64,000 nt of DNA from IMG/VR virus record IMGVR_UViG_3300042894_003697; one strand, written 5' to 3'. The notes under the pieces were generated by a model. That model was not told the DNA's origin. It saw only the letters and a list, made by a program, of their open reading frames with translations, and ran no database searches. The stretch comes from an uncultured virus (IMG/VR IMGVR_UViG_3300042894_003697). Taxonomy: Duplodnaviria > Heunggongvirae > Uroviricota > Caudoviricetes. Positions 2-42,171 of the stretch are shown here, one piece after another; position 1 is the stretch's first letter, and every line of letters starts with the position of its first letter. The translations under genes were made by a program, and so were the position numbers.

Positions 2-862
2 GGCGCCTATACCAATTTGGTGTCCGATGGCCGCAATCACTTTACTCACACTCACGACGGCAGTCAACTATACCGTTTTGGTGAAATCAATCCATACGTT
101 GAAGCATTTTTTAAGTGGTGGGAAACTGATCTTCACAAAACTCTTCAAGAGCTCAGAATAACCGGCGGTGAACCGTTGATGAGTGCAGAGACATGGAAAC
201 TGATTGAATGGTTTAAAGCCAACAAAGGACGTAGCAAAACACGTCTGGCCATCAACAGCAATCTAGGCACTGATGTTGACATAGATCGTTTGCTTGAGGC
301 CATTGATGGAGTCGAAGTTGATTTATATACCAGTAACGAGTCAACAAGCCTACAGTCTGAATATATTCGTGATGGACTTGTGTGGGATGATTGGGTCAAC
401 AATGTAGAACGGTTACTTGATTCTGGAAAATTCCGCAGTATTCATGTCATGTGCACAATCAATGCGCTGTGTTTAGATAGCTTGGATAGTTTGCTTTCTT
501 GCATACACAATTGGAAAATTGAATATGGAAGAGATGCAATTAGTTTTACTTTAAATATATTACGTTTTCCCAGCTTTCAATCGCCATTGGTGTTGCCAAA
601 CAACATGCGTGAACAATATAAAACCTGTCTTGAACAGTGGTTGTATCAAAATGACGGAGAGTTTTTACATGAACACGAGCATAATCATATACAACGATTA
701 ATTGACTATCTTGATGTAGTTAAAACTCCGCATGCCGAATCGGCCAAATTAACTGTGCTTCAACAAGATTTTAAACAATTTTACACACAATACGATCAGC
801 GTCGTGAAAAAGACTTCGGTTCCACGTTCCCCGAATTAAAAGATTGGTACGACTCATTGTGA
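2..862 (+). CDS. Radical SAM-family protein, C-terminal part (5' end lies outside the window)
   Basis: Frame is open from base 2. ITGGEPLM and NSNL motifs, and similarity to the three downstream paralogs. The CxxxCxxC motif is not in the window. Confidence 0.8.
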   Translation, partial: GAYTNLVSDGRNHFTHTHDGSQLYRFGEINPYVEAFFKWWETDLHKTLQELRITGGEPLMSAETWKLIEWFKANKGRSKTRLAINSNLGTDVDIDRLLEAIDGVEVDLYTSNESTSLQSEYIRDGLVWDDWVNNVERLLDSGKFRSIHVMCTINALCLDSLDSLLSCIHNWKIEYGRDAISFTLNILRFPSFQSPLVLPNNMREQYKTCLEQWLYQNDGEFLHEHEHNHIQRLIDYLDVVKTPHAESAKLTVLQQDFKQFYTQYDQRREKDFGSTFPELKDWYDSL

Positions 863-1734
863 AAATACTAGGTACATTATTTGTACTACTGTTAAATACT
901 GCGGCATTAGCAGATGTAGTCAAGATATATTCTCCATATGCTCCGTCGCATTCGGCCACTCCTGCTATGTTTAAAATCATTAATCAGGCCAACAAATCGC
1001 AACACACTTATTCTTTTGTGCTGGAATTCAAGCCCGGCGGCAACCAAATGATTGCTCTACAAGCATTGGATGCAACCAGCCTGGCCGTTATTGCTCCGGC
1101 CTTTGTAGAAAATGTAGCCGCAGGTAAGATCTTAGAGTCGGACTATGTGCCTGTTCATGCTCTGGGCGATGCTTGCTGGACAGTGATCACAAATGGTAGC
1201 ATTACGGATCAAAAAGAAATGACTGTGGGCGGAGTGGGTATTGGTAATGCCACACATTTAACAGCCCTGGCACTAGGCGAGAAATATGGCTTTAGCGTTA
1301 GATATATAGTGTTCAAAAGCAACAACGATGCCTTGGTAAACATGGCCGGCAACAATGGAATTTTTATGGTAATTGATCGTTACGAATCATATCAAACACT
1401 AAAAACCAAAAATGCCAAGTTGCAAGCATTTGCGGCATCCTGTCCCACTAGACTGCCGCAGGCACCCAGTGTTCAAACTCTGCATGAAATAGGTATTGAT
1501 GCGCCGTATGTGTTCAACATCATTGTGGCACATAGATCAATGACGGCCACACAGCGTCAAGCAATAGCAACTGTGTTAAATGATGCACAACGAGCTGTTG
1601 GATACAGTGAAATTTTTAACTTGTCTGGGGTAAAAATCCCCGACATCTCGGCAGAAGAATTCTATGCTAAATCTGTTGCACAAGTTAAAAGATTGCAAGA
1701 AAAATATAGAAAAGAAATTAATCAATCACGATGA
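859..1734 (+). CDS. Bug/TctC-like tripartite tricarboxylate transporter substrate-binding protein
   Basis: Signal peptide (…TAALA|D). VLEFKPGG and RLPQAPSVQTLHEIGI resemble the TctC motifs VVENRPGA and RSPALPDVPTLAE. Probable GTG start overlaps the upstream stop. Confidence 0.7.
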   Translation: MKILGTLFVLLLNTAALADVVKIYSPYAPSHSATPAMFKIINQANKSQHTYSFVLEFKPGGNQMIALQALDATSLAVIAPAFVENVAAGKILESDYVPVHALGDACWTVITNGSITDQKEMTVGGVGIGNATHLTALALGEKYGFSVRYIVFKSNNDALVNMAGNNGIFMVIDRYESYQTLKTKNAKLQAFAASCPTRLPQAPSVQTLHEIGIDAPYVFNIIVAHRSMTATQRQAIATVLNDAQRAVGYSEIFNLSGVKIPDISAEEFYAKSVAQVKRLQEKYRKEINQSR

Positions 1735-2990
1735 CATACCGATATAATTCAACAGATCTAGTCCGAACCACCGAACTCACTGTTCGCGAACAGTTTCTTT
1801 TACAGGACTCAAAAACCTTCTGCATGTATCCTTGGATTCATTTACATGCTTATCCCACAGGCGAAGCATATCCTTGCTGTCATGCTGAAATGAAGCCAGG
1901 TGTTATGGGCAACTGTAGAACAAATACGCTAGAAGAAATATGGCGCGGAGAGCCCATGCAGAAGTTACGTGCGCACATGTTAAGCGAAACTCCTCATGCT
2001 GCCTGCACACGCTGTTATGAACAGGAAGAATCAGGTTTCTTTTCGGGCCGCAAGAGTGCAAACAAGCATCATGGGCATCACATAAAGAAGCTGGCGGAGA
2101 ATCCATTTGAAATGACTTATTGGGACATACGTTTCTCAAACTTATGTAATCTTAAATGTCGTAGCTGTGGGCATATTTTCAGCAGTCAATGGTATCAAGA
2201 TCAAGCAAAACTTGCTGGCTCAGAGTGGAAAGAACGCAATACTGTTCTTAACTATGCTGGCCGTACAGAAACAGACATGTGGGAACAACTGGAACCACAT
2301 TTGGATTATGTGGAACAGATATATTTTGCCGGTGGCGAACCGTTGCTGATGGATGAACATTATCGTATCTTAGATGAATTGGTACGGCGAGGCCGGTTTG
2401 AGGTGCGTTTAATATACAACACAAACTTCACACATACTGACTTAAAAGGGCGCTCGGTGTTTGAATATTGGAAAAAGTTTAAATCAGTGGCAGTGGGCGC
2501 AAGTTTAGATGACATGGGTGCCCGTGCAGAATACATACGCAAAGGCACAGACTGGGCAGTGGTGCGCCAGAATCGTCAAGACATGCTGGCCGTATGTCCA
2601 GATGTGGATTTTTACATCTCGCCTACACTAAGCATCATGAATGCATGGCATCTGACAGAGTTTCATCGTGCCTGGGTAGAACAAGGTCTAATCCGCGCAC
2701 AAGACCTCAATGTAAACATACTACAAGATCCGCTACACTACAGGATTGATATTGCACCGTCTGACTACAAAGCACAGTTACAAGCAAAATGGACACAACA
2801 TATTGAATGGCTTCGTCCACAAGATCACTTGGGTCGCGCAACGCAGGGATTTGAAAGTGCAATTACTTTTATGAATGCCACAGATAACACACAGCTAATA
2901 GATACATTCTGGCGCAAAACACATGAACTAGATGAGATCAGAAAAGAAAACATTCTGGACGTGATACCAGAATTGAAGGCTCTGAAATGA
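1731..2990 (+). CDS. Radical SAM protein with N-terminal SPASM/twitch-like Cys domain
   Basis: CMYPW…PCC…CxxC at the N-terminus; CNLKCRSC; FAGGEPL. Confidence 0.9.
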   Translation: MTYRYNSTDLVRTTELTVREQFLLQDSKTFCMYPWIHLHAYPTGEAYPCCHAEMKPGVMGNCRTNTLEEIWRGEPMQKLRAHMLSETPHAACTRCYEQEESGFFSGRKSANKHHGHHIKKLAENPFEMTYWDIRFSNLCNLKCRSCGHIFSSQWYQDQAKLAGSEWKERNTVLNYAGRTETDMWEQLEPHLDYVEQIYFAGGEPLLMDEHYRILDELVRRGRFEVRLIYNTNFTHTDLKGRSVFEYWKKFKSVAVGASLDDMGARAEYIRKGTDWAVVRQNRQDMLAVCPDVDFYISPTLSIMNAWHLTEFHRAWVEQGLIRAQDLNVNILQDPLHYRIDIAPSDYKAQLQAKWTQHIEWLRPQDHLGRATQGFESAITFMNATDNTQLIDTFWRKTHELDEIRKENILDVIPELKALK

Positions 2991-4198
2991 ATATTCCACA
3001 CGATAAATTCTGTGTATTGCCCTGGATCAGCTTAGAAGCCAGTCCTGTTGGTACAGTGCGTCCTTGTTGCTTGGCCGACGACGAAATTGTTGACAACAAC
3101 AATGAAAAGTTCAGTTTAATGACTGCTGACTTTGCTGACATACAAAACAGCACACACATGCGCACATTGCGTGAACAATTTCTAGCAGGTGAAAAACCAC
3201 AGACATGCCGCAAGTGCTGGAATGAAGAACGTGCAGGACGCACTAGCAAGCGTATGCACACCTTGGACAGAATGAAACACATGGGCATCACGTCAGACTG
3301 GACTGCCGATTCCAAGCCCGTGATGTTCCTGGATCTTAAACTGGGCAACATCTGCAACCTAAAATGTCGTATATGCGGATCATGGAGTTCAAGCCAATTT
3401 GCCACAGAAGAACTGGCACAATTGCCCACGGAAGAAAAAAAGTCCAGTTTTGCATATCAAATGTTACAAGCAGGTGCTTGGCCTAGAGATAATACTCAGT
3501 TTTGGGGAGAAATTGATCAGCATTTAAATGATATACGCTATATTGAATTCACTGGCGGCGAGCCATTTATGATTCGAGAGCATTTCCAAATGCTACAGGG
3601 CATCGTGGATCGTGGTATTGCACATCAAGTTGAAATACATTATAATACAAATGGCACACACTACCCTGAAGAAGCCGTTGAAATTTGGAAACATTTTAAA
3701 ACTGTGGAAATAGCATTTTCAATTGATGACCTAGGCGCAAGATTTGAATATCAGCGCACCAACGCGGTATGGTCAGACGTGGTGTTCAATATTGATCGTT
3801 TCCGTTTACTAAGAGAAGACTATCCTAACATTCAGTTACAATGCTGTGCCACTGTGAATGTGTTTAATGTGCGCTATATTGATCAACTGGCACAATGGAT
3901 CAACCAGCAGGCCTTTGATTTTGTGTACTGGAACATGATGCACGATGCATGGTATTTCTCAATTGCTACACTGCCCGCGATGGCCAAAGCAGCCATTGCA
4001 GATCATTTACGCACATGTGATGTTCCTGTCAAGTGGCGCGGGGAATTTGACAACATAATTGAATTTATGAATGGTGGTGCTGACTCTGATGGATTTATAT
4101 TGCGTATGAAAGTGCGTGATCTAGATCGCAAACGGAATCAGAACTTGGCCACAGTGGCTCCAGAATTGGCAGAATTAATTGAATACACCAAAACCTGA
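2987..4198 (+). CDS. Radical SAM protein with N-terminal SPASM/twitch-like domain
   Basis: CVLPW…PCC…CRKC; CNLKCRIC; FTGGEPF. Confidence 0.9.
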   Translation: MNIPHDKFCVLPWISLEASPVGTVRPCCLADDEIVDNNNEKFSLMTADFADIQNSTHMRTLREQFLAGEKPQTCRKCWNEERAGRTSKRMHTLDRMKHMGITSDWTADSKPVMFLDLKLGNICNLKCRICGSWSSSQFATEELAQLPTEEKKSSFAYQMLQAGAWPRDNTQFWGEIDQHLNDIRYIEFTGGEPFMIREHFQMLQGIVDRGIAHQVEIHYNTNGTHYPEEAVEIWKHFKTVEIAFSIDDLGARFEYQRTNAVWSDVVFNIDRFRLLREDYPNIQLQCCATVNVFNVRYIDQLAQWINQQAFDFVYWNMMHDAWYFSIATLPAMAKAAIADHLRTCDVPVKWRGEFDNIIEFMNGGADSDGFILRMKVRDLDRKRNQNLATVAPELAELIEYTKT

Positions 4199-5477
4199 CA
4201 CCTTGTGCATGGCACCGTGGACGCACACATATCTCAGTCCGCAGACTGAACGACGCATGTGTTGTGCCTCACGAGAAAATGCACAAAGTTTCACACAGTA
4301 TATAGATACTGGTCCGGGTACCGGTAATTATACTCCTAGTACTTTAGAAGAACATTGGAATAGTGAACACATGAAGTCAGTTCGTCGTCGTATGATGGCC
4401 GGGGAAACATTGCCCGAATGTGATGTATGCAACAACAAGCTATTAAATACAAATGTCTATCGCAGTTATTTTAATCAACTCTTTGGCCACAAATATGTAG
4501 ATGTCATGTCTGCTACTCTTCCTGACGGATCAACATCAGTAAAACCAGTCAGCTGGGATTATAGATTTAGTAATCTTTGCAACTTTAAATGTCGCATGTG
4601 CGGAGATATGTTAAGCAGTTCATGGGAAAGCGAACAACGTCAGCATGACATGATTGACTGGACCAATACAAAAAATAATTGGATGATTCCTGATGTAAGA
4701 AATAAAATAAGTAAATTTCAAGATAGCCAAATTGAGTTAGAATTTAGTCAAGCAGTAGAAGAACATCGTGTAGAAGAAGTGTATTGGGTTGGTGGCGAAC
4801 CGTTGATGTATGAACAACATTGGCGGTATATGAAACGCATTATAGAACTGGGTGATGGAAAAAATGTCTACGCTAGATACAACACAAATCTCAGCCGCAT
4901 TGATTATCGCGGGATTAATTTGTTCAGTGACATATTGGCCAATTTGCGAGATTGGCAAGTATGTGCAAGTCTTGATGGCACCGGAGTAGTAGGAGAATAC
5001 ATACGAACAGGACTTGATTATCAACAGTTCTTGCAAAATTTCAACAAAGGACTTGCGTACAAGCACAACAGTAGGAACATGCGTCTTGATTTTACTCTTA
5101 CTTTACCAGGAATGTTTGAAGTCAACAACATGCAAACATTATCACAACAATTAGAAGTAGAGCTACTGACCAAAGTGGTGTTTAGTTTTAGCCCTGATAT
5201 TGTGATGAGTCCATTGGCATTGCCCAGAAAGTTGTTGGATCCGTGGATAGATGAACTAGTAGACCATTCAACTGGTACAATGCGCAGTATGCTACTACAG
5301 TTAAAAACAAGACCCACATTTGAAGAACAATGGCCCGAAGAATATCAATCTGCTATTGCACAAGGTAAAGCTCGTGTGTTAAAATTAGAACAGATTAGAA
5401 CCCAATCAACAACAATGACAGACATACTCAGTGCCCGGTCTGATGTACTTAAATGGTGGATGCAAATTGAAAGTTAA
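4179..5477 (+). CDS. Radical SAM protein with N-terminal SPASM/twitch-like domain
   Basis: CMAPW…MCC…CDVC; CNFKCRMC; WVGGEPL. Confidence 0.9.
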   Translation: MNTPKPDTLCMAPWTHTYLSPQTERRMCCASRENAQSFTQYIDTGPGTGNYTPSTLEEHWNSEHMKSVRRRMMAGETLPECDVCNNKLLNTNVYRSYFNQLFGHKYVDVMSATLPDGSTSVKPVSWDYRFSNLCNFKCRMCGDMLSSSWESEQRQHDMIDWTNTKNNWMIPDVRNKISKFQDSQIELEFSQAVEEHRVEEVYWVGGEPLMYEQHWRYMKRIIELGDGKNVYARYNTNLSRIDYRGINLFSDILANLRDWQVCASLDGTGVVGEYIRTGLDYQQFLQNFNKGLAYKHNSRNMRLDFTLTLPGMFEVNNMQTLSQQLEVELLTKVVFSFSPDIVMSPLALPRKLLDPWIDELVDHSTGTMRSMLLQLKTRPTFEEQWPEEYQSAIAQGKARVLKLEQIRTQSTTMTDILSARSDVLKWWMQIES

Positions 5478-6541: not shown

Positions 6542-6643
6542 ATGAATTGGTTAAAAAATTTAATAGCCCGTGTGCGTCTTGAAATACGGTATCGTAAAAA
6601 ATTAAAAGAATTGCGCAAAAGAGATCCGTTTATTTACAAATGA
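6542..6643 (+). CDS. 33-aa basic peptide MNWLKNLIARVRLEIRYRKKLKELRKRDPFIYK, coupled to the carbamoyltransferase
   Basis: AAGGA SD; its TGA stop overlaps the next ATG (ATGA); missed by the ORF track. Confidence 0.75.
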   Translation: MNWLKNLIARVRLEIRYRKKLKELRKRDPFIYK

Positions 6644-8139
6644 AAGTATTAGGTATAAGTGCTGGGTTTCATGATGCGTCAGTGTCGCTGATTGATAATG
6701 GGACCATTTTATTTGCTGGACATGCAGAACGCTACAGTAAGATTAAAAATGATGCCCATATAAATGATTCACTTGTTGCAGATGCACTAAGTCACGGCAA
6801 TCCTGATCTGATTGCCTATTATGAACGCCCTTGGATCAAAAAATTACAACAACTATATTCAGGACAGTATGAAGAAGCATTTGATTTTGGCAACTTTACT
6901 TTGGATCAGTATTTGCGTAAACATCTATCTGACACTGTTCATCGGCAGCAACTATTACAATGCCCTAGAAAATATATGTCCCATCATCATAGTCACGCCG
7001 CCGCAGGATTCCAATCCAGTCCCTATAACAGGGCCACAGTGGTTGTAATTGATGCAATTGGCGAACTAGATACCATATCAATTTGGGGTGCGGAATATAA
7101 TAAGCATGGTCACGCAACATATAAGAGGCTCTGGACACAACGTTATCCACATTCAATTGGACTGTTCTATTCGGCGGCCACCGCCAGTGTTGGGTTGCGA
7201 CCACTGGATGAAGAATACATTTTGATGGGCATGGCTGCGTATGGAGATGCCACAAAAGCTGTTGGCATGCATGCTTTAGTAAAAGATTCAGATCAGATAC
7301 TCTTCCGTGACAATCTACACACAGGCATTGACAGTAAATATCTGCAGGATCTAGAAGAATTTGATATTGCTGCCGGAGCACAGGCCATTGCAGAGCGACT
7401 AATCAACAGTGTCATGCGTAGAGCCAGTGACTTTAACTGGTCTAACAATTTGGTCTATATGGGAGGAGTTGCTCTTAACTGTAGTGCTAATCGTAATTTG
7501 GGGAAGTTTTTTGACAATATTTGGATTATGCCTAATCCTGGCGACGCTGGCAGTAGTCTGGGTGCAGCGGCACTGGCATACAGGAAACAGATACATTGGC
7601 CCAATGCCTATCTGGGCACAGATATTCCTGGTGATTATCCTGTCAACAACATTGTGGATTGTCTTCTACGTGATAAAATTGTGGGTGTGGCCAGTGGACG
7701 TGCTGAATTTGGGCCCAGGGCTCTGGGTAATAGATCATTATTGGCAGACCCTCGTGGACCAGACATAAAAGAACGTGTGAATGATATTAAAAGACGACAG
7801 CAATTTAGACCGTTTGCGCCTGTAATTCTAGAGGAACATGTTGATATGTATTTTGATATGCCACGCGGATTTCTAGACAGTAGATACATGCAGGTGATTG
7901 CTCGTTGTAGGCATCCTCACATATTTCCTGCTATTGTTCATAGGGACGGCACTAGTAGGGTGCAAACAGTACCTGCAGACGGGTCTGGAATTAGACAACT
8001 ACTAGAAGCCTGGTACAAGGCAACAGGCTGTCCTATGTTGTTAAACACAAGTCTAAACATACGTGGAGAACCCATGGTAAATGATCGTGCAGATGCAGAT
8101 CGATTTGAACAACTATACGGCGTTAAGGTTTGCAGTTAA
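6640..8139 (+). CDS. Carbamoyltransferase, NodU/CmcH family
   Basis: GISAGFHDAS, HHHSHAA, GGVALNC, EFGPRALGNRS, FRPFAP, LLNTSLN. Confidence 0.95.
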   Translation: MKVLGISAGFHDASVSLIDNGTILFAGHAERYSKIKNDAHINDSLVADALSHGNPDLIAYYERPWIKKLQQLYSGQYEEAFDFGNFTLDQYLRKHLSDTVHRQQLLQCPRKYMSHHHSHAAAGFQSSPYNRATVVVIDAIGELDTISIWGAEYNKHGHATYKRLWTQRYPHSIGLFYSAATASVGLRPLDEEYILMGMAAYGDATKAVGMHALVKDSDQILFRDNLHTGIDSKYLQDLEEFDIAAGAQAIAERLINSVMRRASDFNWSNNLVYMGGVALNCSANRNLGKFFDNIWIMPNPGDAGSSLGAAALAYRKQIHWPNAYLGTDIPGDYPVNNIVDCLLRDKIVGVASGRAEFGPRALGNRSLLADPRGPDIKERVNDIKRRQQFRPFAPVILEEHVDMYFDMPRGFLDSRYMQVIARCRHPHIFPAIVHRDGTSRVQTVPADGSGIRQLLEAWYKATGCPMLLNTSLNIRGEPMVNDRADADRFEQLYGVKVCS

Positions 8140-21824: not shown

Positions 21825-21902
<78 letters not shown>

Positions 21903-29265: not shown

Positions 29266-29496
29266 TTACTTAATTTTTCTTGCTGAATCAAGACTGATTT
29301 CGCCTGTTTGAAATTCCAACAAGGCATTAACTATAGGATAGATATGTGCAGGATTTTCACTGGCACGATGCTGACGAGCAATTTCTCTTGCACGAGCCGA
29401 AGCCAGGATAACCAACATATATCTGTCACCGCCAGAATTTTTTACACAGAGTTCTGTGTCTATTTCGGTGCCACGGCTTAATTTCGAGCGATTCAT
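29266..29496 (-). CDS. rpoZ: RNA polymerase omega subunit-like protein
   Basis: GDRYMLVILASARAREI and PIVNALLEFQTGEI match the omega motifs (N)RFxLVxxAxxRARQ and K.xxxALxEIxxG; AAGGA SD. Confidence 0.75.
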   Translation of the reverse strand: MNRSKLSRGTEIDTELCVKNSGGDRYMLVILASARAREIARQHRASENPAHIYPIVNALLEFQTGEISLDSARKIK

Positions 29497-33112: not shown

Positions 33113-33188
33113 TGGTTGCAGAGGAGGGATTCGAACCCCCGACCTCCAGGTTATGAGCCTGGCCAGATACCACTTCTAACACTCTGCG
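33113..33188 (-). tRNA. Initiator-type tRNA-fMet(CAT)
   Basis: C1·A72 mismatch; loop CTCATAA. Confidence 0.9.
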
Positions 33189-34231: not shown

Positions 34232-34323
34232 TGGTAGCCCCGGCGGGAATCGAACCCACATGAACCAATTATCTGTTGCTTACGGGATATAAATCCGCCG
34301 TTTTACCATTAAACTACAGGGCC
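34232..34323 (-). tRNA. Atypical 92-nt tRNA-Ile(TAT)-like RNA with an extra arm
   Basis: Acceptor, D and T arms and ACCA are intact; the anticodon region is expanded. Confidence 0.7.
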
Positions 34324-34327
34324 AATG

Positions 34328-35098
34328 TTATAAATTTTTAAACGCTTTCTTTATAATTGCACTGCGATCCAGTTTAGAATTGGCACCCAGCACAATCACT
34401 GCATACTGTTGCGTGTTGTGTTCCACCAACATGGCTACACACCACCCGGCGGCCGTAGTAAATCCAGTCTTACTCACAGTCACACGGTCAAACTCTGCCA
34501 ACAGTTGTTGAGAAGTGTGGCTAAGATTCACAGTGTTGCTACGGGTTTGGTTTGACTTTTTTAGCAATACCGTGGGCTGACTGCTGACTTCTTGTATAAA
34601 CCAATAACCGGCAGCAATCTGCACCATCTCTGCCAGATCCTGTGCAGTGGTCACATTGAACACGCCTAACCCTGATGGATCTATGAATTTAGTATTTCGA
34701 AGATCCCACATTCTAGCATGCTGATTCATTTTGGCTATAAATGCAGATCGGCCCCCAGGATAGTCCTGTGAAATGGCTTCGGCTGCACCGTTGTCACTGC
34801 TGATCAACATGGCCTGCAACAACTGCTCTCTGGTATACTGGCCTGGCGGCAATCGACTACTGGTGTTTCTCCCCAGTGTTATCGGCTGTTGTAAATCTCT
34901 ATTGTAATCCAATGTCACCATGGCAGTCATCAGCTTGGTCACACTGGCCATGGATCGCACCTGATCCACATGACGACTCAGTTCCGTGCGTTGTGCATTG
35001 ATGTTGTAGACCAACACTGTGGGCTCACTGGTGCGAGCTGTGGCATTGGTCAACACTGCACAAAAAAACACAGTAGCAAATAATTTCATATTCTTCAA
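34328..35098 (-). CDS. D-alanyl-D-alanine peptidase, family S11 (PBP7/DacA-like)
   Basis: Signal peptide; SVTK (SxxK), SDN, KTG. Confidence 0.9.
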   Translation of the reverse strand: MKNMKLFATVFFCAVLTNATARTSEPTVLVYNINAQRTELSRHVDQVRSMASVTKLMTAMVTLDYNRDLQQPITLGRNTSSRLPPGQYTREQLLQAMLISSDNGAAEAISQDYPGGRSAFIAKMNQHARMWDLRNTKFIDPSGLGVFNVTTAQDLAEMVQIAAGYWFIQEVSSQPTVLLKKSNQTRSNTVNLSHTSQQLLAEFDRVTVSKTGFTTAAGWCVAMLVEHNTQQYAVIVLGANSKLDRSAIIKKAFKNL

Positions 35099-40830: not shown

Positions 40831-40957
40831 ATTGTTCCTTTTAATGTAATATTTAACAAATAATTTGTCTATCCAATAATTATACACAAGATTACCAACA
40901 CTACGTGTGCGTGTACGCACATGTTTTGACACGAAATGTTAGAAATTTGTCCAAAAG

Positions 40958-40980
40958 AAAAGCACCCGAAGGTGCTTTCT
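40958..40980 (-). terminator. Terminator after tmRNA
   Basis: AAAGCACC-UUCG-GGUGCUUUU. Confidence 0.85.
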
Positions 40981-41377
40981 GTTATTTTCTGTTACGAGGT
41001 ATAACTACCCTAAGCAGTGTTTAGACTGCTAAAGATTCCTTGGCTGTACGAGCTGAGAACTTGACGTTCTTACCACTTACAGTTACGGTTGTATTTGCTT
41101 TTGCATTTACTTTTTTTGCTTCTACAACCGGGTTACCCCTGTCCTACGGCTTCTGCATTGCCGAGCTGTCCACTAATTTACTTGTTGCCCTGTCGAATCT
41201 AGGTCAGGCCCATCAAAAAGACTTTTTATAATCCAAAACATATAGTTGACTACAACTAAGATGCCCCACATATAAACCCAATGCCAATTCTCAAACATAA
41301 AAATCCTTTTGGTGGACCTGGGGGGATTCGCACCCCCGTCCAGAACACTTTTCTCTTTGCTTCATACAGCAATAACT
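40981..41377 (-). ncRNA. ssrA: Circularly permuted (two-piece) tmRNA
   Basis: The piece ending CAGGUCCACCA (41310) precedes GGGCCUGACCUAGAUUCGAC (starts 41211); G3·U70; tag frame AKANTTVTVSGKNVKFSARTAKESLAV*. Confidence 0.9.
41173..41298 (-). CDS. 41-aa hydrophobic peptide starting in the tmRNA intervening segment
   Basis: AAAGGA SD 5 nt before ATG; MFENWHWVYMWGILVVVNYMFWIIKSLFDGPDLDSTGQQVN. Confidence 0.5.
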   Translation of the reverse strand: MFENWHWVYMWGILVVVNYMFWIIKSLFDGPDLDSTGQQVN

Positions 41378-41427
41378 TGTATTTAATCAATCTACGCTTT
41401 TGTAAATTCAATTTTTATTTGTAAGAG

Positions 41428-42171
41428 TTATCCTGTTAAAACTTCACACCCATTTTTGGTAACAAGAATAGTATGTTCATATTGAGCACTATATCCACCA
41501 TCACGGGTTATAGCGGTCCAACCATCTTCTAATAGTTTTACTTTGTGTCCTCGCTCATTTATCATTGGTTCTATAGTGAATATCATTCCTTCTTTCATTA
41601 ATGAAGAATCGTTATTTTTGTAGTGTAAGATTTGAGGGACAGTATGGAATTCTTTACCAATACCATGTCCACAAAAATCTCTCACAACACTAAAGCCTGC
41701 ATTAGAAGCCGTTTCTTCTATAACTTTACCTATTTTGTTAAAGGGAACACCGTCCTTTACAATCTTTATCGCATTTTCTAAACAGTCGTATGTTGTTTTA
41801 CACAAGAATTTGTGCCGAGGATGAACTTCACCAATCATAAACATTTTACTAGTATCACCAAAAAAATAAGACCCATCTATCAACTTTTTTACGGTTACAT
41901 CTATGTTTAAGATATCTCCGTTCTTTAATGGTGTATTGTTTGGTATGCCATGGCAGACTACATTATTTACGCTGGCGCAGATTGATTTTGGAAACCCTTC
42001 ATAGTTTAATTGGGCACTTTCTGCATTGAGAACATTTATAGTATAATTCTCACACAAATCATTAAGAGAGTTAGTAGTTACCCCTGCTACAACAAATGCT
42101 GAAATGTAATCCAATAATTGTTTTGCTAGATTACATACCAAACGCATATTGCTTATATCTTGGTTAGTCAA
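41428..42171 (-). CDS. map: Methionine aminopeptidase type I
   Basis: FPKSICASVNNVVCHGIP, NIDVT, GDTS, CGHGIG…FH, FTIEPMIN, SAQYEHT. Confidence 0.97.
   Translation of the reverse strand: MTNQDISNMRLVCNLAKQLLDYISAFVVAGVTTNSLNDLCENYTINVLNAESAQLNYEGFPKSICASVNNVVCHGIPNNTPLKNGDILNIDVTVKKLIDGSYFFGDTSKMFMIGEVHPRHKFLCKTTYDCLENAIKIVKDGVPFNKIGKVIEETASNAGFSVVRDFCGHGIGKEFHTVPQILHYKNNDSSLMKEGMIFTIEPMINERGHKVKLLEDGWTAITRDGGYSAQYEHTILVTKNGCEVLTG

Follow-up and report, generated by a model that had tools for sequence, protein, structure and literature searches.

A widespread long-armed phage tRNA-Ile(UAU) whose extra arm resembles the anticodon arm of tRNA-Ile(GAU)

No sense codon is harder for bacteria to read than AUA, and the known solutions to it are lysidine, agmatidine and an adapted IleRS. 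A tRNA gene of an uncultured lake jumbo phage raises the question of why one phage RNA carries two hairpins that look like isoleucine anticodon arms, one with UAU at the normal position (arm A) and one with GAU in the variable region (arm B), and what the second hairpin could be doing there. The gene sits in a tRNA cluster within the stretch of 64,000 nucleotides that was analysed, referred to here as the window. An earlier note on this DNA had given the sequence of the RNA and had placed UAU at the normal position with an A31.C39 mismatch, and both are as described, the gene being on the minus strand. It had also suggested ARAGORN, which reports tRNA-Ile(tat) of 92 nt, and the locus scores 56.8 bits with the Rfam tRNA model (RF00005), for which the gathering score is 29 bits. 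The features of a bacterial tRNA in that family are present, that is a 7-bp acceptor stem, the D, anticodon and 5-bp T arms, U8, A14, G18G19, a UUCGA-type T loop, U33 and a purine at 37. Arm A has U33, A37, U38, G29-C41 and the mismatch at 31-39. In the alignment to the Rfam tRNA model the extra arm is a 19-nt insertion in the variable region, which comes to 22 nt with its hairpin. A 3-bp stem closing a 7-nt loop had been proposed for this arm; the loop CAGAUAA stands, and the stem is one of five pairs with a bulged G. The linkers, from 5' to 3', are UA after the acceptor strand, G after the D arm, A after arm A and CAU after arm B. The tRNA starts 4 nt past the stop of an upstream ORF similar to peptidase S11 (34328-35098; ORF list and Pfam). 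The locus is a real phage tRNA gene with a five-arm fold, and its parts are collected in Table 1.

Table 1. Parts of the long-armed tRNA gene and related features. Positions are those of the window unless a contig is named.
Feature	Position	Strand	Support
Whole tRNA gene, CCA encoded	34232..34323	-	ARAGORN, Rfam RF00005, ORF list, Pfam
Acceptor stem, 5' strand GGCCCUG; top pair G1.U72 wobble	34317..34323	-	both-side changes in 7/7 pairs, 91 relatives
D arm GUUU-AAUGGUA-AAAC; 4-bp stem; A14, A15, G18, G19	34300..34314	-	2/4 pairs covary
Arm A, decoding anticodon arm GCGGA-UUUAUAU-CCCGU	34282..34298	-	ARAGORN, Rfam
Anticodon UAU in arm A	34289-34291	-	ARAGORN
Arm B, extra arm in variable region, AGCAA-CAGAUAA-UUG(G)UU	34263..34280	-	scans, covariation, RNAalifold
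Arm B loop CAGAUAA, 7 nt	34269-34275	-	
T arm GUGGG-UUCGAUU-CCCGC	34243..34259	-	4/5 pairs covary
Acceptor 3' strand CGGGGCU, discriminator A73 and encoded CCA	34232..34242	-	
Ile2-like tRNA(CAU); C4-G69, C5-G68, G27.U43	21825..21902	-	ARAGORN
C73 subclade copy	L348 6489-6579		
C73 subclade copy	L349 836-926		
C73 subclade copy	L351 6240-6330		
Bacterial true copy 1, 132-kb phage-like contig of a Bacteroidetes MAG			
Bacterial true copy 2, 722-nt contig			
Bacterial true copy 3, Pleionea sediminis, ends inside T arm; small tRNA array (L360) adjacent	L356		
Bacterial true copy 4, Kangiellaceae chromosome, intact, in a 10-tRNA array of ~3 kb	L359 8510-11444 (array)		

The extent of the family was followed with scans that leave different parts of the molecule free. 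An exact 22-mer that runs through arm A into the first four nucleotides of arm B matched at least 119 viral contigs; among the matches listed the arm B loop is CAGAUAA in 118 of 119, and the remaining one ends at a contig edge. A scan with the D stem and a G31-type arm A, arm B being free, gave 40 loci, with the loop CAGAUAA in 33, CAGAUUA in 5 and UAGAUAA in 2. A third scan gave 65 loci, all 65 with CAGAUAA; its pattern was an A31-type arm A and, after it, a base other than A, with the loop of arm B left free. The scans share contigs, and the locus counts of different scans are thus not additive. Taken side by side, the three loop-free scans, which overlap in contigs and of which the first has at least 119 matches, show CAGAUAA in 216 of 223 readable loci and the form YAGAU(A/U)A in every one. 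The earlier note had proposed that the conservation of CAGAUAA be checked in homologues and had counted its absence as a refutation; the loop turns out to be among the most conserved parts of the RNA. All 105 loci retrieved through arm A carry the long arm, so that no short-armed (class I) version was seen among these 40 and 65 loci. Patterns with GAC in place of GAU in the arm B loop matched five times, with no tRNA among the five. L324, L333 and L338 of the 40-locus scan are the same apparently decayed copy, with arms A and B intact and the T and acceptor stems unpaired.

BLAST placed the family in 49 phage records, 43 of them of Vibrio phages, and the Aeromonas and Pectobacterium matches cover part of the query. 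In Vibrio phage Pontus (Demerecviridae) the long-armed gene is annotated 'tRNA-Ile' and comes directly after an ordinary tRNA-Ile(GAU); the Vibrio phages henriette 12B8 and V6Aob also have the family. In bacterial genomes (185,579 species genomes) a longer pattern found seven loci, four of which are true copies (Table 1). A 15-mer scan of bacterial genomes gave at least 120 matches, and among the matches listed one is this tRNA and the rest are chance. The nearest virus record has 82% of sampled words in common with the window and an identical tRNA, and the window stretch itself was found in lake-water DNA metagenomes, with no RNA dataset among those listed. The family is large and occurs in viral contigs, in cultured Vibrio phages and in a few bacterial tRNA arrays. 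The idea that the hairpin is a dispersed repeat was rejected. The window has one exact copy of it and two matches in all, one of them with 2 mismatches, against 1.21 expected by chance, and the 364-kb related genome likewise has one exact copy.

The fold of the RNA was examined in an alignment of 91 distinct family members. The minimum free energy fold of the single sequence does not give the cloverleaf (z = 0.20), which is uninformative for a tRNA, and alignment-based tests were used instead. The five-arm cloverleaf pairs 96.7% of cells, as compared to 33.8-55.1% when the partner strand is slid. Changes on both sides of a pair are seen in the acceptor, T and D stems (Table 1). A second set of 44 sequences, enriched for variants of arm B, showed two compensatory pairs in this arm, one with A-U in 34, G-C in 9 and U-A in 1, and the other with A-U in 40 and C-G in 4; a further pair varies between G-C and G.U, the third pair is C-G in 44/44, and the bulged G is invariant. 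RNAalifold predicts the core of the arm B hairpin by itself. Arm A shows zero double changes, which is in part an ascertainment effect, and its 31-39 pair is A.C, G.U or G-C. The 15-48 pair covaries, being A15/U48 in most copies and G15/C48 in the Vibrio phage copies, and U12-A23 is invariant across the family. The acceptor and T stems turn over fully, and both arm loops and the top of arm B stay fixed. It had been held that A73 and C4-G69 fit isoleucine identity. A73 is kept in the window copy and in 91/91 of the aligned members, with C73 in 5 of the 40 loci of the D-stem/G31 scan, and the second part of that claim does not extend to the family: the window copy has C4-G69, and position 4-69 is C-G in 44 of the 91 distinct members (U-A in 32, A-U in 13). 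As both arms are real helices, the question becomes which of them stacks under the D stem. A pairing between the two loops, of the UAU loop with the AUA of CAGAUAA, was also considered and rejected; the subclade loop CAGAUUA would break it, and it is G-A-U that stays fixed.

The reading of arm A as the decoding arm is bound up with the meaning of AUA in these phages. Of the 17,054 codons in the window ORFs 309 are AUA, or 18.1 per 1000. A search for related loci with an Asn-synthase-like protein gave three loci, hence all window ORFs were compared with one whole related genome. This genome (G002), 364 kb long with direct terminal repeats, holds orthologues of 40 window ORFs at 23-87% identity, and 32 orthologue pairs entered the codon comparison. 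In these pairs 149 AUA codons of the window align with Ile in 86 cases (ATT 40, ATC 23, ATA 23), with Val in 29, Leu in 14 and Met in 5. The same profile is given by ATT (Ile in 179 of 286) and ATC (73 of 119), unlike TTA or ATG. Since the profile of AUA is that of ATT and ATC, AUA means isoleucine in this lineage. This bears directly on one rival explanation, in which the RNA is a class-II-like tRNA mischarged by LeuRS or by another synthetase blind to the anticodon, and AUA is partly read as another amino acid. The long variable arm, A73, A14 and the 15-48 pair (A15-U48, or G15-C48 in the Vibrio phage copies) do recall the identity elements of E. coli tRNA-Leu. Leu nevertheless stands opposite AUA in no greater share (14/149) than opposite ATT (37/286) or ATC (9/119), the D stem is of the class-I-like 4 bp, and the C73 subclade does without A73. 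A precedent exists in nematodes, where nev-tRNA-Ile(UAU) was charged with Leu in vitro according to the available part of PMC3333845, and mischarging of this kind is nonetheless very improbable for the phage tRNA.

The earlier note had brought up a decoder of AUA that is independent of lysidine and TilS, and the present data point the same way. The arm-B-only scan, in which the anticodon was free, gave 35 loci and UAU in 35/35; U33 and A37 are in place, AUA is well used and behaves like an isoleucine codon, and neither an IleRS-type gene (PF00133) nor a TilS gene (PF01171) was found in any of five related phage genomes (0/5 for each). Judged from these sequence features, the tRNA(UAU) likely functions as an AUA decoder. 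The five genomes, four of them at least 99% complete, have 30-45 tRNAs each, including Ile(GAU), the long-armed UAU and CAU tRNAs. As none of the five has an IleRS-type or TilS gene, the enzymes of the host must handle the tRNA(UAU). According to PMC3575796, kcat/Km of E. coli IleRS is 360-fold lower for UAU than for LAU, and Mycoplasma mobile required a change in its IleRS to use UAU.

The separate Ile2-like CAU tRNA that the earlier note had seen in the window is also present (Table 1), and several relatives have one too, so that AUA decoding is redundant in these phages, a point against the explanation favoured below. It is a possible second decoder of AUA and would need the TilS of the host. 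A further tRNA(CAU) of the window (33113-33188, minus strand) is initiator-like, having C1 mismatched with A72; given these two CAU tRNAs, no elongator tRNA-Met is obvious in the window. Three related phage genomes carry tRNAs with the anticodon CUA, which would read amber and which ARAGORN labels 'Pyl', at L283 260-334 (G006), L285 706-781 (G003) and L348 5381-5456 (G007); these are hints of TAG suppression or recoding in some relatives.

The loop of arm B is a close likeness of the anticodon loop of tRNA-Ile(GAU). CAGAUAA differs from CUGAUAA at one place, where A stands instead of U33. In a comparison with the anticodon loops of 281 tRNAs in these phage regions, five loops come within 1 mismatch of CAGAUAA, all of them from tRNA-Ile(GAU), and none of the 11 Ile(GAU) loops is more than 2 mismatches away. 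The likeness was spotted post hoc, and about 40 of 16384 heptamers are within 1 mismatch of CUGAUAA or UUGAUAA. U33 is found in 274 of the 281 loops and A33 in none (0/281). The tRNA-Ile(GAU) of Vibrio phage Pontus (L121 2904-2979) has C33, with the loop CCGAUAA, and in G007 (L348) C33 is found in tRNA-Glu(CUC), tRNA-Glu(UUC) and tRNA-Arg(ACG); seven of the 281 phage tRNAs are without U33.

A38 is a determinant of isoleucine identity. The isoleucine set of the anticodon loop is G34 or lysidine34, A35, U36, (t6)A37 and A38, and arm A has A35, U36 and A37 but departs from the set with U34 and U38, position 38 being U or C in nearly all members. In arm B the letters GAUAA are complete and in order. 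At 29-41 arm A has G29-C41 in 44/44, while C-G stands at the corresponding place of arm B, again in 44/44. The decoding features (U33, A37, UAU) are thus found on arm A, and the isoleucine features of an anticodon arm on arm B. PMC9976931 counts A73, the anticodon, t6A37, C4-G69 and C29-G41 among the isoleucine determinants, C29-G41 as a minor one, and has U12-A23 in the E. coli set. G-A-U stays fixed while the A that follows it may become U, which argues for the mimic of an anticodon (GAU) and not of a codon (AUA).

The explanation that we favour is that this is a phage tRNA for AUA with its decoding and its isoleucine recognition in separate arms, arm A doing the decoding and arm B the recognition, most plausibly by the IleRS of the host; we give it a probability of roughly 40%. 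Arm A with UAU would read the isoleucine codon AUA. Arm B, with its GAUAA loop and the C-G pair at 29-41, would supply isoleucine-specific recognition to the tRNA, and the A at its U33 position would disable it for decoding. The IleRS of the host, which is poor at charging UAU, would be the most plausible reader of arm B, and another factor specific for isoleucine tRNAs could take its place. We infer from the conserved features that the RNA is aminoacylated with isoleucine and that arm B is bound by one of these two. In its narrower form, the proposal would be that a duplicated anticodon arm keeps the GAU signal for IleRS and is disabled by A33, while a second arm with UAU decodes, so that identity is split from decoding; stated so specifically, it is possible but doubtful. 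Reading by IleRS also has points against it. In the L shape of a class-II-like tRNA the tip of a 5-bp variable arm is not at the anticodon site, so that the reading of arm B would need an unusual mode of binding, or arm B would have to replace arm A under the D stem. In addition, the IleRS determinants account for neither the bulged G nor the A in place of U33, both of which are invariant.

These same two invariant features, which are no isoleucine determinants, favour a rival explanation. Here the tRNA is again an AUA-reading tRNA-Ile, and its extra arm would serve a different partner as a handle, be it a modification enzyme, a phage protein or a tertiary contact, or would be a structural arm of the class II type; the GAU likeness would then be a relic of the arm's origin and no working signal for IleRS. 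In the Vibrio phage copies arm B is followed by GGUC, which is similar to AGGUC, the variable loop in the neighbouring tRNA-Ile(GAU). The resemblance suggests, without proof, that an anticodon arm was duplicated or that two such arms were fused, and such an origin fits the relic as well. A relic, though, would not hold seven loop positions near-fixed amid a complete turnover of the acceptor and T stems. Also against this explanation, no partner gene beside the tRNA(UAU) is conserved among the ORFs flanking it in the window and in three cultured phages, where the sole common family is one unknown PHROG, present in two phages. In our assessment a handle or relic is an unlikely, though serious, alternative.

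The C73 subclade has to be weighed by both explanations. It accounts for 5 of the 40 loci and combines discriminator C73 with the arm B loop CAGAUUA and a 3' linker UUU (Table 1); its records include phages of 115 kb and 142 kb. The phages concerned keep A73 in their own tRNA-Ile(GAU) and are without the Ile2-like CAU tRNA. With C73 in the subclade, a strong isoleucine determinant is dispensable there. The subclade and its loop count against an identity role of arm B, and there must be either another identity mechanism in it or another job for the RNA. The handle or relic gains from the fact that arm B is retained in spite of the altered discriminator.

Long arms are also found on other tRNAs with class I anticodons in such clusters, which again fits a handle or a relic. 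The tRNA-Gly(UCC) of Vibrio phage Pontus (L121 826-912, 87 nt) has a long arm with a GAAA loop and a D stem of 3 bp, and a tRNA-Glu(UUC) (L359 11358-11444, 87 nt) combines a long variable arm with a class-I anticodon. The arm of the Pontus tRNA-Gly(UCC) mimics nothing, and long arms can therefore arise for other reasons. Phage tRNA clusters may more generally have long arms on tRNAs other than Leu, Ser and Tyr.

It could also be possible that arm B is a decoy or shield, that is, a mimic of the Ile(GAU) loop made uncleavable by A in place of U33 and directed against a host defence nuclease that targets tRNA, which it would bind or divert, or to which it would make the tRNA resistant. For such a decoy the change of discriminator in the C73 subclade would matter less, and the C33 of the Pontus tRNA-Ile(GAU) beside the long-armed tRNA and the other phage tRNAs that lack U33 (7/281 in all) would fit as well. 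Phage tRNAs are reported, in the available parts of PMC10264068, PMC11464382 and PMC11555353, to evade or neutralise defences that cleave tRNA. Against this stand the UAU arm, which is perfect with its U33 and A37, the encoded CCA and the covarying acceptor stem, none of which a decoy needs. A nuclease specific for the anticodon loop of tRNA-Ile(GAU) was not found in the literature searched, and no linked defence or counter-defence gene is among the flanking ORFs of the window copy or of the copies in three cultured phages. A decoy is therefore improbable, and the separation of decoding and recognition between two arms is still preferred.

Both hairpins have the geometry of an anticodon arm, a 5-bp stem and a 7-nt loop, and one could think of an RNA that switches its fold, decodes with both arms (arm B with GAU reading AUY codons) or loses arm B after transcription. 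Decoding by arm B is opposed by the absence of A33 from all 281 real anticodon loops and by the ordinary tRNA-Ile(GAU) genes of the complete relatives. Of all the explanations this group has the least to recommend it and is hardly probable at all. Splicing of arm B was rejected on the gene itself, which has no features of a bulge-helix-bulge or of a group I intron. We know of no bacterial pathway for such a mini-intron.

The genomic setting is that of a phage rich in RNA genes and in auxiliary metabolism. ARAGORN and Rfam find 17 tRNA genes and a permuted tmRNA within the window, and Pfam finds around them auxiliary metabolic genes such as those for radical-SAM/SPASM proteins, sugar-nucleotide enzymes, ThyX, NAD synthase and methionine aminopeptidase. 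The tmRNA (40930-41402, minus strand) is called tmRNA* by ARAGORN, with a tag ending in ...KESLAV; the Rfam model tmRNA_permuted scores 102.2 bits at 41021-41371, and the methionine aminopeptidase gene (41428-42168) adjoins. On the plus strand, at 17-5474, four ORFs of the radical-SAM/SPASM type stand in a run with an ORF for a TctC-like receptor; a carbamoyltransferase (6640-8136) comes after them, and the block is kept in the 364-kb relative at 40-85% identity. A small ORF amid the tRNA genes (29266-29493, minus strand) has a hit to the RNA polymerase omega/Rpb6 domain at 27.1 bits, the cut-off being 26.

If decoding and isoleucine recognition are indeed divided between the two arms, the phage would bring along a decoder of AUA that could be charged, without TilS, by the IleRS of any ordinary host. 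It would imply either a new binding mode of IleRS or two arms that swap places under the D stem. A spare identity arm on a widespread phage tRNA would then be a fourth solution for AUA, and it would be a natural uncoupling of synthetase recognition from the anticodon, which is a goal of genetic-code engineers. If arm B serves otherwise, there is still a large, conserved and apparently undescribed tRNA architecture, common to T5-like Vibrio phages, to uncultured phages of 115-370 kb and to some bacterial tRNA arrays, and testable in cultured phage-host pairs. A description of a long-armed phage tRNA-Ile(UAU) was not found in full-text searches of the literature open without subscription, and in the available parts of reviews of non-canonical tRNAs allo-tRNA(UAU) and nev-tRNAs alone are mentioned. 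The RNA is a variant of tRNA-Ile(UAU) that is real and widespread, and apparently undescribed.

Comparison with known systems places the RNA apart from each of them. The class I tRNA-Ile(UAU), known from Mycoplasma mobile (tRNA-Ile2(UAU), PMC3575796) and Lactobacillus plantarum (in PMC9976931), resembles it in the use of UAU for AUA without lysidine and TilS. Both kinds of tRNA face the same problems, a weak recognition of U34 by ordinary IleRS and a possible misreading of AUG. In the class I form the variable loop is short and charging relies on an IleRS that has adapted (Arg865 in M. mobile), whereas the extra arm of the window tRNA has 5 bp and a loop of the GAU type; a variable loop of 4-5 nt, by which class I is recognised, is not what this tRNA has. 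Its own anticodon arm is also without C29-G41 and A38, unlike the class I tRNA-Ile(UAU). Class II tRNAs (Ser, Leu and bacterial Tyr) share with it the five-arm cloverleaf and the hairpin between the anticodon and T arms, and since their variable arm is read by the synthetase they are a precedent for an identity element at this place. The long arm is therefore common to both, but the anticodon of the window tRNA is not one of Leu, Ser or Tyr, its D stem has 4 bp where class II has 3 bp, and its fixed 7-nt loop copies the anticodon loop of another tRNA. The nematode nev-tRNA-Ile(UAU) joins a long variable arm to UAU in the same way. According to the available parts of PMC3333845 and PMC4300185, however, nev-tRNAs have eukaryotic class II bodies of the Leu type and are charged with Leu in vitro, whereas the body of the window tRNA is class-I-like and AUA behaves as isoleucine. 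In the allo-tRNA(UAU) of Mukai et al. (PMC5389517) the acceptor/T branch is 8/4 or 9/3 and the discriminator is G73 or U73, as against 7/5 and A73 in the window tRNA, which for that reason does not belong there. The tRNAs of Vibrio phage Pontus (PONTUS_113, 93 nt; Demerecviridae, Thalassavirus) and of henriette 12B8 (VPDG_01001) are of the same family, with UAU and with arm B as AGCAA-CAGAUAA-UUGGCU. These copies differ from that of the window in an ordinary D arm of the GCUC/GAGC type, in G-C at 15-48 and in G.U at 31-39, and they are annotated as 'tRNA-Ile' alone.
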